The notes under the pieces are model-generated. The model saw only the letters and a list, made by a program, of their open reading frames with translations. It was not told where the DNA came from and made no database searches. A program made the position numbers and the translations under genes. 64,000 nt of DNA from an uncultured Acidimicrobiaceae bacterium (GTDB lineage: Bacteria > Actinomycetota > Acidimicrobiia > Acidimicrobiales > RAAP-2): assembly GCA_963794875.1 (NCBI GenBank), contig CAWCFG010000008.1, positions 872 through 64,871 on the forward strand. Direction: 5' to 3'. Positions 1 through 36,360 of this stretch are shown here, piece by piece (position 1 is the first letter of the stretch; every line of letters starts with the position of its first letter).

Positions 1-168
1 TTCGCGAAGTTTGGCAAGGTGCTTCGTCTGATGGAGGAGCGCAAGCACCTCACGGTTTCCGGTTTGATTGAAATCGGGGAAATAGCGCAGACGATGAATC
101 ATCAAAAGCCATCTGAAGTCCTGAGAATCCTCAGAGACCAAACGCCGACCACCTCACAGGAAATATAG
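1..168 (+). CDS. Intron-encoded LAGLIDADG-type homing endonuclease, C-terminal 55 codons only (5' partial)
   Basis: Frame 1 is open from base 1 to TAG at 166-168: FAKFGKVLRLMEERKHLTVSGLIEIGEIAQTMNHQKPSEVLRILRDQTPTTSQEI. The KHLTxxGLxxIxxIxxxMN and SExxRxxxD pattern matches C-termini of rRNA-intron LAGLIDADG enzymes (I-CreI-like) as I remember them. The ORF runs into the intron core and stops in the P8 loop. Confidence 0.55.
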   Translation, partial: FAKFGKVLRLMEERKHLTVSGLIEIGEIAQTMNHQKPSEVLRILRDQTPTTSQEI

Positions 169-285
169 GTAGTCCCTGTGAGATGAAGTTATGGTCCGGT
201 CCCTACGGCGACGTAGGGAGATCAGCGGAAACGACTGGTCCGCTAATCACTCGAATAACTTTGAGTGATTGGTTGTAACAGCTTG
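1..285 (+). mobile_element. Group I intron, 3' part (5' end outside window), inserted after the equivalent of E. coli 23S U1931
   Basis: Non-rRNA sequence runs up to G285 and is followed by exon agcgaaattcc (A1932 onward by my own count from helix 69). Group I core elements are present: R-like cctcagagaccaaac (128-142), S-like gaagttatggtcc (185-197), P8 hairpin ctcacagg/cctgtgag (153-182), and a GCGA-tetraloop hairpin ccctacg-gcga-cgtaggg (201-218). The terminal nucleotide is G. Confidence 0.75.
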
Positions 286-332
<47 letters not shown>

Positions 333-590
333 CGACTTTCCTACTGTCTCAACCACAGACCCGGCGAAATTGAAGTACGAGTAAAGATGCTCGTTAGCTG
401 CATCAGGACGGAAAGACCCCGTGGACCTTTACTACAGCTTGATGTTGAGTTTTGGTACTATTTGTGTAGGATAGGTGGGAGACTTTGAAGCGTTGGCGCT
501 AGCCAGTGTGGAGTCAACCTTGAAATACCACCCTTTTAGTGCCGGGACTCTAACCTCGGTCCGTGATCCGGATCAGGAACAGCGTCAGGT

Positions 591-622
<32 letters not shown>

Positions 623-841
623 ATGTAACGGAGGCGCCCAAAGGTTCCCTCAGGCTGGTTGGCAATCAGCTGTCGAGTGCAATGGCAAAAGGGAGCTTGA
701 CTGCGAGACCTACAAGTCGAGCAGGTGCGAAAGCAGGGCATAGTGATCCAGCGGTTGCTTATGGAAGCGCCGTTGCTCAACGGATAAAAGGTACCCCGGG
801 GATAACAGGCTCATCTTCCCCAAGAGTCCATATCGACGGGA

Positions 842-887
<46 letters not shown>

Positions 888-888
888 C

Positions 889-924
<36 letters not shown>

Positions 925-958
925 TACGCGAGCTGGGTTTAGAACGTCGTGAGACAGT

Positions 959-1239
959 GGTTTAAACCGCGCTGTCTATAAACTTGGCTATATGCTGGAA
1001 ACACCGAAGTATCCTGCGCTACTCGTTCTCTATAAAGGAGAGCAGTGAAAATGTGTCAGGTGCGGTCAATCAGCAGGAAAGACTGGAATCTATGTGATTC
1101 CAGAATCCTCAGAGACCATATGCCAAGCACCTTCGCAACCTTGTGAAGGTGAAGATATGGTCCGATCTGCATGGCGACATGCAGAGCCAGGCAGAAATGT
1201 CCTGGCCCCCGGCCGATTTGGTCGGTGGTAACAAGAATG
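959..1239 (+). mobile_element. ORF-less group I intron (281 nt) in 23S rRNA between gagacagU and Ucggtccc (about E. coli U2604/U2605 by my count)
   Basis: The two exon halves are contiguous in other bacterial 23S genes. The 5' exon ends in U958 and the intron ends in G1239. P1 pairs exon agacagt (952-958) with intron gctgtct (971-977), giving a U-G wobble at the splice site. R cctcagagaccata (1108-1121) pairs with S gatatggtc (1154-1162) to form P7. A P8 hairpin lies at 1128-1151 and a GCGA tetraloop hairpin at 1167-1184. Confidence 0.8.
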
Positions 1240-1640
1240 TCGGTCCCTATCCGATGCAGCCGTAGGAGATTTGAGAAAGGCTGTCCCTAGTACGAGAGGA
1301 CCGGGACGGACGTAGCTCTCGTGTGCCAGTTGTCCTGCCAAGGGCACGGCTGGTTTGCGACCTACGGGTGGGATAAGCGCTGAAAGCATCTAAGTGCGAA
1401 GCCCGTTTCGAGATGAAATCTCCCACAGGGTTAACCTGGTAAGGCCCGTGGCTAGACGACCACGTTGATAGGCCGGAGGTGTAAGTGCAGCAATGCATTC
1501 AGCCGACCGGTACTAATCGGCCGAGGGCTTGGAGACCTACTCGCTCGTGCTCGCTTTGGAACGCTCAGGGGCTGCGGAAACGCAGCCTCAGGCGTGGCCC
1601 TGCCCGTGATCGGGTGGTCGTGCCCCGCTGAGTGCAAGAT

Positions 1641-1758
1641 TTCCGGTGGCCATGGCGGCGGGGAAACACCCGTTCCCATTCCGAACACGGCAGTTAAGCC
1701 CGCCCGCGCCGATGGTACTTGGGGGGAGGCCCCCTGGGAGAGTAGGTCGCCGCCGGGA
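1641..1758 (+). rRNA. rrf: 5S rRNA
   Basis: ttccggtggccatggcggcggggaaacacccgttcccattccgaacacggcagttaagccc...gggagagtaggtcgccgccggga matches the bacterial 5S consensus, and the 5' and 3' ends pair as helix I. Confidence 0.92.
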
Positions 1759-1764
1759 TTTCTC

Positions 1765-1803
1765 ACGAAACCCCCTCTGAGCTTCGGCTCGAGGGGGTTT
1801 CGT
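1765..1803 (+). terminator. rrn operon terminator hairpin
   Basis: A 13-bp stem acgaaaccccctc/gagggggtttcgt encloses a gagc-ttcg-gctc mini-hairpin, immediately after 5S. Confidence 0.6.
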
Positions 1804-3207: not shown

Positions 3208-4728
3208 ATGCCGCAGAACTCCTCCCAGCCGAATCGCCGCGCCTCGTCGGCGCGGTCGGGCGGCTCGGCTCGTCCACCGGCCCGGTCAGGCGGCGGGGGG
3301 CAGGGGAGTCGTGGCGGTGCGGGCCGACCGTCCTCCCGTAACGCAAGTGGCGCCGGAGGTGCTGGCGGTGGGGCGCGGCGCCCTGCCAAGAGCGGCGGCA
3401 CCCGGAGTGGTGCGCCGAGCCGTGGCGCCACTGGCGGTACCGGCGGCACCAGAGGTACGGGAGGACGAAGCAGCACAAGCAGTGCCGGACGCACGGGCGG
3501 CGCCGGACGCAGTGCAGGGGGAGCACCGGCGCGGTCGTCGGGAAAGAGCGCCGGCCAGGCCGGACGGCCCAGTTCAGCGAGATCACGACCAGACGGCCCG
3601 CGCTCGGGTCCGGCGCGCTCGAGTTCCCCCAGGTCGAGTTCCCCGAGGACGGGCGCGGGCAGATCTGGGCCACCAGCCCGGAGCGGCGCCCCCCGCAGCA
3701 CGGCCACCCCCCGCGACGAGCGCCCTCCGTTGCCCCGCAAGGCGGCGGGCTGGGGCAACGTCGCCCGCCGGGGCGCCCACCAGGTCAGCAAGCGGGACGG
3801 CGAGGAGCGGGGCCGGGACGAATCCGACGAGCGAGAGCGCCGCCGTGGTGCGCCGCGACCGAAGGCACAAGCACAATGGAAGCGGGACGACGGCGCCCCG
3901 GAGTGGGAGGACCTCGACGCACCGACCCGTAAGGGCAAGGCACGCGGGCGACTCGCCACCGGCAGCGCCGTCGAGGCCATCGCCACCCTCACGCAGCGTC
4001 ATTCGCTGCCACCCGAGATCGCCGCCGATATCCGCAACGCGGCCGACATCGCGACGGTCCGCCACCGCGAGCATCTCGTCGAGCGGGCCGAGTCGGCCTA
4101 CGGCGCCTACGAGCGCGGCCGCTTCCAAGATGCGATGCGAGCCATCAAGCCGGTGGCCGACGAGGCCCCCGGCGTGGCCGCCGTGCGTGAGCTGGCCGGC
4201 CTCGCCGCCTACCGGTGTGGTCGCTGGCGCTCGGCCGCCGGCCACCTCGAGGCGTTCGGGCGGATGAGCGACTCGGCGGAGCACCTCCCGGTCCTCATGG
4301 ACTGCCAGCGGGCGCTCCACAAGCCGAAGAAGGTGGCCGCCCTGTGGGCGGAGCTGCGGCAGAGCTCGCCCGATCCCGACGTCCTGGCTGAAGGGCGGAT
4401 TGTGGCGGCGGCGTCGTTGGCTGACTCGGGTGACCTCAACGGGGCCATCGCCATGTTGTCGACCGCTGGCGCGTCCAAGGCACTGCGCAACCCCTCGGAA
4501 CGCCACGTCCGGCAGTGGTACCTGCTGGCCGACCTGTACGAACGGGCCGGCGACGTCCCTAAGGCGCGGGAGTACTTCGAGCGGGTGTTTCGCACCGACG
4601 CCGAGGCCTACGACGTGGCCGAGCGCCTGCGCGGCCTCGGTCCCGAGCGCAAGCCCAGGGCGCCCCGGCGCACCAAGGCCAAGACGTCGAAATCGACCAA
4701 GACCGGCCCGCCCATCGACAAGGGCTGA
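3208..4728 (+). CDS. Hypothetical protein with an Arg/Gly/Ser-rich disordered N-terminal half and a TPR-like helical C-terminal half
   Basis: 506-aa ORF. The N-terminal ~250 aa are RGG/SRG low complexity. The C-terminal region (AYRCGRWRSAAGHLEAF...LADLYERAGDVPKAREYFERVFRTD) looks like TPR repeats. Confidence 0.6.
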   Translation: MPQNSSQPNRRASSARSGGSARPPARSGGGGQGSRGGAGRPSSRNASGAGGAGGGARRPAKSGGTRSGAPSRGATGGTGGTRGTGGRSSTSSAGRTGGAGRSAGGAPARSSGKSAGQAGRPSSARSRPDGPRSGPARSSSPRSSSPRTGAGRSGPPARSGAPRSTATPRDERPPLPRKAAGWGNVARRGAHQVSKRDGEERGRDESDERERRRGAPRPKAQAQWKRDDGAPEWEDLDAPTRKGKARGRLATGSAVEAIATLTQRHSLPPEIAADIRNAADIATVRHREHLVERAESAYGAYERGRFQDAMRAIKPVADEAPGVAAVRELAGLAAYRCGRWRSAAGHLEAFGRMSDSAEHLPVLMDCQRALHKPKKVAALWAELRQSSPDPDVLAEGRIVAAASLADSGDLNGAIAMLSTAGASKALRNPSERHVRQWYLLADLYERAGDVPKAREYFERVFRTDAEAYDVAERLRGLGPERKPRAPRRTKAKTSKSTKTGPPIDKG

Positions 4729-4799
4729 CAGCTGTATAGACCCACTAGACACCTAGTGGGTCTGTACAGTCCCCCGCAGCTTCGCCGGTCGCCGGTCGT

Positions 4800-6138
4800 T
4801 CAGGGCGCCGGCGCCGCCGGAACAGTCGTCGCGGTCGCTGGAGCCACTGGTGCAGTGGTCGTCGTCGCCGGGGGAGCGGTGGTCGTCGTCGTGGTCGTGG
4901 GTGGCGGTGCGGTCCCGAGGTCCGGTCCGATCACCGTCACCAGGGTGCCGATCGGTGTGAGCGGCCAGACCAGCGCCGCGTTGGCGTAGCTCATCTCGAC
5001 GCAGCCGTTGCTCTGGGGGGTCCCGTAGGAGGACCGGATGAAGCCGTGCAACGCATCGCCGCCGTTGAAGTAACTGGCGTAGGGGACGTTGGGGTCGTCG
5101 TAGGTGGAGCCGTCGACGTTGGTCCCCTTCATTTCCGAGTACCGCACGTGCTCGAAGACGGCGTAGGTGCCGTCGGTGGTGTCGGCGCCGGGCGCGCCGC
5201 TGTTGATCGGCACGGTGTACTGGACCGTCCCGTTGTTCCAGAGGGTCAGGGTTTGGGGGACCACTTTGTTCACGAGGACGTAGACGTAGGGCGTAGCGCT
5301 CGGCTTGTTGTTGATGACGTCGTTGAGCAGTGAGGTCCAGACGGTGGGGCCGGGGATCCCGTCCACGCCGATGCTGTTCTGGGTCTCGAAGGCCTCGACC
5401 GCGGCCTTGGTGATCTGGTTCATGGTGCCCTGGGTCCACTGCGAGGTGAGCTGTGTCGGCAGGTTGGGCCAGCGCCAGGTGAAGGCGCCCGCCTGGTCCT
5501 CTGCCAGGTCGGCATTGGTGGGAGCCGGGCCGCTGGGGGAGAAGCGCGACCGGCAGGTAGTCGAGCTGGGCCAGGAGCTGTTGGAGCCGGAGGGCATCGC
5601 CGGCCGCCACCTCGAAGGCCACCGAATGCGAGGAAGGCAGTGTGGCTCCGCCCGTCGACTGCAGCCCGTTCGTCCCGCCGGGGATGGTCACCACGACCTG
5701 GGAGGAGGGGATGAGGGGGGAGTCGAGGGCGTAGGTCAGGGTGGTGGCGCTCGTCTGGACCCACTTGCCGGCGATGGCGGGTGTCAGCGTCGGCGCCGCT
5801 TTCTTCAGCGAGACCGGGGCCGAGAATTGCAGCGAGATGCTTGTGTTCGCCGCCACGTTCTGCGTCCCCGCTGCGGGGGTGGTGGACTTCAAGAAGAACG
5901 AGGCCGAGCTCGCGCCACCGGAGCCCTTTGCTGCCGCGCCAGACCCGTTCGCGCTCGAGGCGCTCGTGGGGCCCGACTGCTTCGGTGTGGACCCACTGGT
6001 GACAATGAGCGCCACCACGATGACCACGACGACCGTCGCCGCGCCGACCACGAGCACCCACAGGCGCAGAAGCAACGGCCGGCCGGCCCGGGACTCGAGA
6101 ACGTTCATGGCCTCCACTTGCTCAAGACGTCGCCTCAC
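4800..6138 (-). pseudogene. L,D-transpeptidase (YkuD domain) with N-terminal TM anchor, split by a 1-nt frameshift near 5547
   Basis: The N-terminal part lies in ORF 4753..6138 (TM segment, Ig-like region, LRLQQLLAQLDYLPV). The C-terminal part lies in ORF 4800..5597 (FSPSGPAPTNADL...HGFIRSSYGTPQSNGCVEM, the catalytic H/C motif). Confidence 0.8.
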
Positions 6139-32196: not shown

Positions 32197-32390
32197 CCGG
32201 AGCGCCAGAGTCCCCGCAGCACGCAGTCGAGGGGACGCCGGAGGAGCAACTCTCCCCGAGAAACTCTCAGGCCGACATACCGCTTCGGTGAGGCAACTCT
32301 GGAAAGCGGATGCCTTTTGGTCCGCACCGAAGGTGGAAGCCGTGTGCAGGGCACGGTGAGGCTCTCAGGTCCAGTGACAGAGCGGGGAGG
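32197..32390 (+). ncRNA. Tandem glycine riboswitch (two aptamers)
   Basis: Aptamer 1: cggagcgccagag...gacgccggaggagcaa...ctctcaggccgaca. Aptamer 2: ctctggaaag...gcaccgaaggtggaag...ctctcaggtccagtgacagag. Both match the gcvT-motif consensus (CUCUGGAGAG...ACCGAAGGGGCAA...CUCAGG), and the element lies directly upstream of gcvP. Confidence 0.85.
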
Positions 32391-36241: not shown

Positions 36242-36247
36242 GCCGCC

Positions 36248-36300
36248 GCTCAGGAGCCATCAGCCATGTCGGTTCGGCGGTTCAGGGCATCGCCCCCCGG
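36248..36300 (-). ncRNA. Fluoride riboswitch (crcB motif)
   Basis: The minus strand reads ggggcgatgccctgaaccgccgaaccgacatggctgatggctcctgag. This matches GGCGAUG...AACCGCC...CUGAUGnnUCCU as I recall it, and it lies immediately upstream of crcB. Confidence 0.75.
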
Positions 36301-36360
36301 CGGGACCCATCGCCGGCGCAACGATCGTAGCCACCGACGCGCCCCGCGCCCGGCATCTCC

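Follow-up and report, generated by a model that had tools for sequence, protein, structure and literature searches.

Textbooks describe group I introns in rRNA genes as rare in bacteria, where they are known from thermophiles, intracellular pathogens, a few cyanobacteria and, more recently, members of the CPR. The 23S rRNA gene of the uncultured Acidimicrobiaceae bacterium studied here, a high-GC soil actinobacterium, is interrupted by 281 nt in the region of the peptidyl-transferase centre, which raises the question of whether this insert is a functional group I intron, the remains of one, an insertion of another kind or a product of the assembly. The DNA analysed (the window, a whole stretch of 64 000 nt) opens with the 3′ part of this gene at positions 1–1536 (RF02541 in Rfam, 962.6 bits), followed by a 5S rRNA gene at 1642–1758; one 23S and one 5S rRNA gene are visible within the window, the rest of which is coding DNA with a GC content of about 69% (0.690).

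The site of insertion could be placed exactly. Using E. coli MG1655 rrlH as the reference for site numbering, BLAST aligned window positions 286–958 with positions 1932–2604 of the E. coli 23S rRNA and window positions 1240–1517 with 2605–2884. The 5′ exon (286–958) ends in U958, the equivalent of U2604, and the 3′ exon (1240–1536) runs from the equivalent of position 2605 to the 3′ end of the gene. The 281 nt of the insert (959–1239) lie between U2604 and U2605 with no E. coli nucleotide missing, the split point is unambiguous (...gagacagt/gg...aatg/tcggtcc), and removal of the insert restores uninterrupted conserved 23S rRNA, with position 2604 directly joined to 2605. The insertion site belongs to helix 93 of the peptidyl-transferase centre, and A2602 is located 2 nt upstream of U958, the distance proposed in a preliminary description of this DNA, which had also set the end of the 5′ exon at U958 and that of the intron at G1239.

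That description took the insert to be an ORF-less group I intron and recommended a scan with the RF00028 covariance model, which returned a significant match at 949–1184 (71.6 bits against a gathering score of 50; E = 3.5e-16 in the 64-kb window) spanning the full model, from position 1 to 253 of 253. The minimum free energy (MFE) of the fold, −122.7 kcal/mol, is far below that of shuffled sequences (−88.1 ± 5.1 kcal/mol; z = −6.84), and folding of the single sequence produced P1, P4–P6a, either P7 or P3, P8, P9, P9.1 and P9.2. All of the elements described below are on the forward strand. P1 (952–977), read from the sequence and present in the MFE structure, is formed by exon nucleotides 952–958 and G959 with 970–977; the internal guide sequence gctgtct (971–977) pairs with agacagt (952–958) and sets a U958·G971 wobble at the 5′ splice site, just as had been described. 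The P10 guide, accg, is also read from the sequence and is complementary to cggt (1241–1244) in the 3′ exon, as previously noticed, and occupies positions 966–969 rather than 965–968, the sole error in the earlier details; with only 4 bp and an offset of one base from the splice site, this pairing is weak. The intron starts with a 10-nt palindrome, GGTTTAAACC (959–968), in the region of the P1 loop and P10 guide, which is not conserved in relatives.

P2 is absent, being deleted in the Rfam alignment, and the 5′ strand of P3 (983–988) pairs with 1122–1127 according to the centroid fold and the Rfam alignment. The segment 993–1075 comprises P4 (993–998/1070–1075), P5 (1003–1006/1063–1066) and an extended P5a–c arm (1013–1060), and the fold next contains P6 and P6a (1076–1108), with pairs 1076–1077/1107–1108 and 1083–1090/1096–1103, respectively, and a P6a loop of only 5 nt (tatgt, 1091–1095). 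P7 (1112–1163) is formed by G1112 and 1114–1120 with 1156–1163, with A1113 bulged, and encloses P3′ and P8; its two elements, cctcagagaccata at 1107–1120 and gatatggtc at 1154–1162, had been correctly recognized. By analogy with G264–C311 of Tetrahymena, G1114–C1162 is presumably the guanosine-binding pair. The 5′ strand of P7 (to 1120/1121) abuts P3′, which begins at 1122, and P7.1/P7.2 are absent. Both the fold and the Rfam alignment contain the P8 hairpin (1128–1151) and the P9 hairpin (1167–1184), the latter capped by a GCGA tetraloop of the GNRA type, where the preliminary description had placed them; two peripheral hairpins, P9.1 (1186–1206) and P9.2 (1207–1228), were found by folding, and the terminal G (omega-G, position 1239), read from the sequence, directly precedes U1240 at the 3′ splice site.

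This architecture bears directly on the possibility of an intervening sequence or an expansion segment, which would either be cut out by RNase III, leaving a fragmented 23S rRNA, or be retained in the mature molecule. Insertions in 23S rRNA genes are common enough, with 18.5% of non-CPR RefSeq genes carrying insertions of at least 100 bp (PMC11270868). The known RNase III type, however, consists of simple extended hairpins located elsewhere, at 23IS2 and 23IS4, whereas group I introns occupy sites 23IS6–14 (PMC11270868), and the present insert has a full group I core with the P3/P7 pseudoknot, contains a guide able to pair with either exon, ends in G and lies 2 nt from A2602, within the catalytic centre, so that an origin of this kind has an almost negligible probability.

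Comparative evidence for the structure was obtained from an alignment of 30 ORF-less introns at the same site (L2604) from several phyla, each with 8 nt of exon on either side, built with MAFFT without fitting any structure; the pairs scored were the helices of the window MFE together with a hand-placed P3. Standard pairs occupied 92.1% of the cells, compared with 33–37% when the 3′ partners were slid by one to three columns, a difference that is inflated by taking the scored structure from one of the aligned sequences, and two-sided changes, which are less affected, were found at 60 of the 95 pairs (433 cells), numbers that in the slid controls did not exceed 38 and 119, respectively. On every measure, none of 500 shuffles matched the observed value.

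The changes are distributed over the whole structure. All seven exon–guide pairs of P1, U·G included, are invariant in 30 of 30 introns, and the eighth pair (959/970) changes two-sidedly (AU in 17, GC in eight and UA in two). P3 pairs in 100% of the cells, with two-sided changes at three of its pairs and three invariant. Such changes were also observed at three of four pairs in P5, seven of seven in P5a, eight of eight in P6a, two pairs in P7, ten of ten in P8, five of eight in P9, five of six in P9.1 and seven of eight in P9.2, while the presumed guanosine-binding pair is invariant (30 of 30). At the place of P10, 16 of the 30 members have at least three contiguous bases complementary to the 3′ exon, and several others carry (G/A)ACC. 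The column of position 1239 (aligned position 289) holds G in at least 90% of the rows, and in all rows inspected the intron ends at this base. Together, the Rfam match and the covariation in 30 homologues bear out the identification as an ORF-less group I intron.

A group I fold could also belong to a decaying relic that no longer splices, or that splices only with a maturase absent here, in an rrn copy that is a pseudogene or is tolerated thanks to an intron-free copy. Some LAGLIDADG proteins act as maturases, and the endonuclease ORF is gone from the window copy; moreover, with one 23S and one 5S rRNA gene in the window, an intron-free copy may exist elsewhere. An unspliced L1931 intron has been reported in Simkania, to judge by a title cited in PMC11270868. 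Against this, the window copy does not deviate from the consensus at any of the 130 columns in which the other 29 introns are conserved to at least 90%, all core helices are intact and the exons score highly as 23S rRNA (962.6 bits). ORF-less copies are, in addition, common, accounting for 20 of the 50 delimited Actinomycetota loci listed in the genome scan described below, and they keep compensatory changes, which would be unexpected for a pseudogene. Nothing in the aligned positions suggests decay of the window copy, and its intron looks fully functional; a relic is accordingly an unlikely explanation. The reading that we prefer, with a probability of roughly 0.88, is that 959–1239 is a genuine group I intron at U2604/U2605, derived from a mobile intron, from which the endonuclease gene is absent.

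The descent from a mobile intron is apparent from relatives at the same site. Species-representative genomes were scanned for the 5′ exon followed, within 3–33 nt, by a P1-competent guide sequence. At least 120 loci were matched, and all of those listed are MAGs, with no cultured isolate among them. At least 54 of these matches come from Actinomycetota (16 from Acidimicrobiia, 21 from Thermoleophilia, namely Solirubrobacterales/Gaiellales, and 17 not further assigned), which contradicts the earlier framing of such introns as rare, with none known to it from high-GC actinobacteria; position 2604 has, moreover, already been published as a group I intron and LAGLIDADG site in CPR (PMC11270868). 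Other matches listed include at least 15 loci from CPR, 11 from Omnitrophota and 16 from archaea, together with loci from Planctomycetota, Elusimicrobiota, Acidobacteriota, Dormibacterota and other groups. An insert of 240–800 nt was delimited at the same site in 81 of the 120 loci listed, the sizes falling into two classes of about 250–400 nt and about 705–782 nt. Left out of the 120 listed were 27 loci in which the 3′ exon was not found or lay off the locus, four with implausibly short inserts and two with inserts longer than 3 kb. Six archaeal loci were rejected as false positives of the pattern, with no insertion at the site, and two further loci (L022 and L095), mis-delimited by a spurious 3′-exon match inside an ORF, were dropped before the covariation test.

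A ribozyme core that can be aligned is found at one and the same site across CPR, Omnitrophota, Planctomycetota and Actinomycetota, the CPR members that align with the core of the window intron being L020 and L088 (Doudnabacteria) and L028 and L077 (Microgenomates). By identity of the 23S rRNA exons, the nearest genomes among the matches listed are the Acidimicrobiaceae MAGs L109 (96.8%), L037 (95.5%) and L013 (94.7%), and several relatives are similar in the genes downstream of the rRNA, indicating some synteny, which places the host among high-GC Actinomycetota of the Acidimicrobiia type. These nearest Acidimicrobiaceae relatives carry the long form of the intron (743–746 nt), the ribozyme parts of which are 86–95% identical to those of the window. 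The ORF-less form of the window sub-lineage was found in 25 independent contigs of a metagenome scan; the best match (L129) is 91.8% identical over window positions 286–1803, and no identical sequence is present among the 25.

These relatives also serve to judge whether the interruption could be an assembly artefact, produced either by joining the rRNA reads of different organisms into a chimera or by collapsing a variant. Operons of rRNA are hard to assemble from mixed samples, the intron has a GC content of 0.495, much lower than the 0.690 found for the remaining window, and no identical contig exists among the genome and metagenome matches listed. The flanking 23S rRNA exons, however, also have a low GC content (0.54–0.58), and the genes downstream are syntenic with those of Acidimicrobiaceae MAGs of the same rRNA arrangement. 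Independent assemblies of relatives contain a same-site intron with ribozyme parts 86–95% identical, and, since the junctions are exact to the base and the 25 independent metagenome contigs present the ORF-less form in the same exon context, an artefact of either kind is very improbable.

Introns of the long class encode single-motif LAGLIDADG proteins of about 160–185 residues, with a match to Pfam LAGLIDADG_1 of 71.2 bits; the nearest solved structures in the PDB are of the I-LtrI/I-OnuI type, 5gkk (of the 170-residue homodimer type), I-Vdi141I and I-CeuI. The ORF of the closest relatives begins within the P5 extension, and the P6a loop is occupied by the body of the ORF. An alignment of the P6a-loop region with seven loci (L037, L013, L035, L069, L109, L112 and L004) revealed that the window copy lacks some 39 nt from the P5 extension, where the ORF of the relatives has its ATG, and about 460 nt from the P6a loop. 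It has no ORF for an endonuclease of the LAGLIDADG, GIY-YIG, HNH or His-Cys type; on the sense strand of the intron no ORF exceeds 45 residues, the length of the longest. A 37-residue ORF at 984–1097, encoded by the ribozyme core, nevertheless ends in ...ENVSGAVNQQERLESM and matches the N-terminus of the LAGLIDADG ORF of the relatives. An antisense ORF of 99 residues at 1090–1389, which overlaps the 23S rRNA exon, was treated as spurious.

Two observations concern the overlap of coding and ribozyme sequence. The conserved N-terminal stretch of the ORF, NQQERLES, is dual-coded with P4′–P6–P6a in L037, L013, L035 and L069 (window core 1066–1125). The C-terminus is read from the P6a′–J6/7–P7–P3′ sequence, gaatcctcagagacca, in three frames in different lineages, giving ILRDHMP (ILRDH), ESSETIRQ (ESSETI) or NPQRL.

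Between the full-length ORFs and the clean ORF-less form there are intermediates, with truncated ORFs in L069, L109 and L112 and a remnant in L105. Such a series is the pattern expected from the cycle of invasion, ORF decay and ORF loss of homing introns, a cycle cited in PMC1995217. Judging from the distribution of the two forms among relatives, loss of the ORF in the window lineage, rather than its gain in the relatives, would be the simplest reading. Full-ORF, truncated-ORF, remnant and clean ORF-less copies thereby display the life cycle of a homing intron within one clade.

The anatomy suggests how the intron would be removed. Pairing of the guide gctgtct with the exon end agacagU in P1 would present U958·G971, after which an external guanosine, held in P7 at G1114–C1162, would attack after U958. 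P10, formed by accg (966–969) and 1241–1244, would position the 3′ exon, and the terminal G1239 would then take the pocket of the external G; ligation of the exons would restore GAGACAGUUCGGUC, with a predicted junction in which the 5′ exon GAGACAGU is joined to UCGGUCC. We infer from these features that splicing takes place, that it is probably protein-free self-splicing and that the exons are ligated. Because the site lies in the catalytic centre, only spliced rRNA would give a working ribosome, and host selection would therefore be expected to keep the ribozyme intact; that splicing is essential to the host assumes that every rrn copy carries the intron. For the introns of Coxiella, which are spliced, a growth-slowing role has been proposed. 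Devoid of its endonuclease, the window copy would be unable to home alone and would be inherited vertically. Where the intron is present, the target site of the endonuclease would be destroyed, the intron-less site being AACGTCGTGAGACAGTTCGGTCCCTATC.

Position 2604 is a group I intron and LAGLIDADG site in CPR (Tsurumaki et al., 2024, J Bacteriol, PMC11270868), probably corresponding to site 23IS13 from the listed order of sites, and is included among the CPR 23S rRNA sites at which LAGLIDADG_1 ORFs predominate (PMC11270868). The window intron shares its site with these CPR insertions, the members of which are also classed by Rfam as group I introns, and differs from them in being ORF-less, whereas LAGLIDADG_1 ORFs are common there, and in residing in a high-GC Actinomycetota host. 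Intron sites were mapped in that study in CPR and not in non-CPR genomes (PMC11270868). Nothing else relevant to L2604 was found in the literature searched, the coverage of which is incomplete. Nor did this literature yield any publication describing rRNA group I introns from Actinomycetota, a weak negative given that subscription journals were mostly uncovered, and the actinobacterial L2604 introns, although present in public assemblies, seem to be unreported in print as far as this incomplete coverage extends.

Bacterial 23S rRNA sites described earlier are L1917, L1931, L1951 and L2593 (PMC1995217). The L1917/L1931 introns, which have no P2, a complex P5 and ORFs running into the core (PMC1995217), are known from Thermotoga, Simkania and Synechococcus C9/C1 (Nesbo and Doolittle, 2003; Everett, 1999; Haugen, 2007, PMC1995217), and the window intron likewise has a complex P5 and neither P2 nor P7.1/P7.2. 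Their single-motif LAGLIDADG ORFs extend from a peripheral loop into the core, like those of the long L2604 relatives. They are inserted in the H69–H71 region, in contrast to H93 here, and the published examples all carry a full ORF. The L2593 introns, found in Chlamydomonas (Cr.LSU, with I-CreI), Thermosynechococcus and DPANN archaea (PMC6125680), are closer in location, 11 nt upstream in the same rRNA helix, and also encode single-motif LAGLIDADG endonucleases, as do the long L2604 relatives; they are characterized, however, by a short P5, a short P2 and P7.1/P7.2 (PMC1995217) and are classed as IA3, whereas the window intron is without P2 and P7.1/P7.2. In helix layout, as compared with the published descriptions, the window intron fits the L1917/L1931 introns, the like of which were assigned to IB4 by Nawrocki (2018; PMC6125680).

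This likeness extends to a second intron in the same gene, which the preliminary description had missed. The 3′ part of a group I intron at site L1931 occupies positions 1–285 (+ strand), cut by the window edge, and was matched by RF00028 at 15–218 with 42.4 bits (E = 4.7e-9), a score that refers to a window-edge fragment and is below the gathering score. Its terminal G is at 285 and its 3′ exon starts at A286, the equivalent of E. coli A1932, so that the 23S rRNA gene of the window has at least two introns. Over 154 aligned nucleotides of their 3′ halves, the two are 80% identical, with the common layout P7–P8–P9(GCGA)–P9.1–P9.2. Within the L1931 intron, the final 55 codons of a frame 1 ORF (stop at 166–168) are present, and this ORF reads through P7/P3′ (LRILRDQTP); a Pfam search with these 55 residues gave no match, and their resemblance to the C-termini of the long class is what points to a putative LAGLIDADG protein.

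Multiple insertions also occur in relatives. In L037, Rfam reported no intron at the gathering threshold because the ORF splits the ribozyme, and insertions in relatives were therefore mapped by BLAST to the E. coli 23S rRNA, which yields approximate boundaries and, at sites other than 2604, candidates by length. In the 54 Actinomycetota loci listed (among L004–L119), inserts of 150 nt or more were located at about 1917, 1923, 1931, about 1952, 2262, about 2500 and 2604, a single gene carrying as many as three. Close relatives do not always share the same sites, L035 having only the L2604 insertion and L109 both L1923 and L2604. In a metagenome contig (L128; Ga0066790_10002325, 4233–5318) whose 23S rRNA exon is 99.4% identical to window positions 286–947, L2593 is occupied by a LAGLIDADG intron of 739 nt and L2604 by an ORF-less one of 315 nt, and the exon between the two is only 11 nt long, CGTGAGACAGT. 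Several introns per 23S rRNA gene (Cbu.L1917 and Cbu.L1951) are also found in Coxiella burnetii, for which the title of a published paper gives a short inter-intron exon of 34 bp, compared with 11 nt in L128; the sites are different, and the host is an obligate intracellular proteobacterium.

A broader proposition, for which we consider the odds to be even, is that the 23S rRNA genes of free-living, high-GC Actinomycetota of soil and peat (Acidimicrobiia and Thermoleophilia) have been colonized by several related group I introns, at about 1917, 1923, 1931, about 1952, 2262, about 2500, 2593 and 2604. A single gene would contain up to three of them or more, with micro-exons down to 11 nt, an extent of colonization known to date from CPR bacteria and DPANN archaea only, and the L2604 lineage would have crossed at least ten phylum-level bacterial groups. 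An actinobacterial host range of this kind was not found in the searchable literature. If the proposition is true, these abundant but uncultured bacteria would need a ribozyme to splice the catalytic centre of their rRNA in order to produce ribosomes.

Taken alone, the window intron is an ordinary and well preserved member of a family that is abundant in public assemblies. With its relatives, it extends rRNA group I introns to Actinomycetota, at a site where the transcript should be unable to yield an active ribosome unless it is spliced. In these lineages, probes and primers based on 23S fail because of such introns, as does the automated annotation of rRNA genes. Compact ribozymes, as well as new LAGLIDADG enzymes whose target in the 23S rRNA is defined, can also be drawn from the family.

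Other RNA elements were noted in the window. A GC-rich hairpin at 1768–1800 (ccccctc...gaggggg, followed by ttt), just 3′ of the 5S rRNA gene, looks like the terminator of the rrn operon. Farther downstream, Rfam located a glycine riboswitch at 32289–32390 on the + strand (52.8 bits) and a fluoride riboswitch at 36244–36323 on the − strand, the latter with a score (34.4 bits) just at the threshold.
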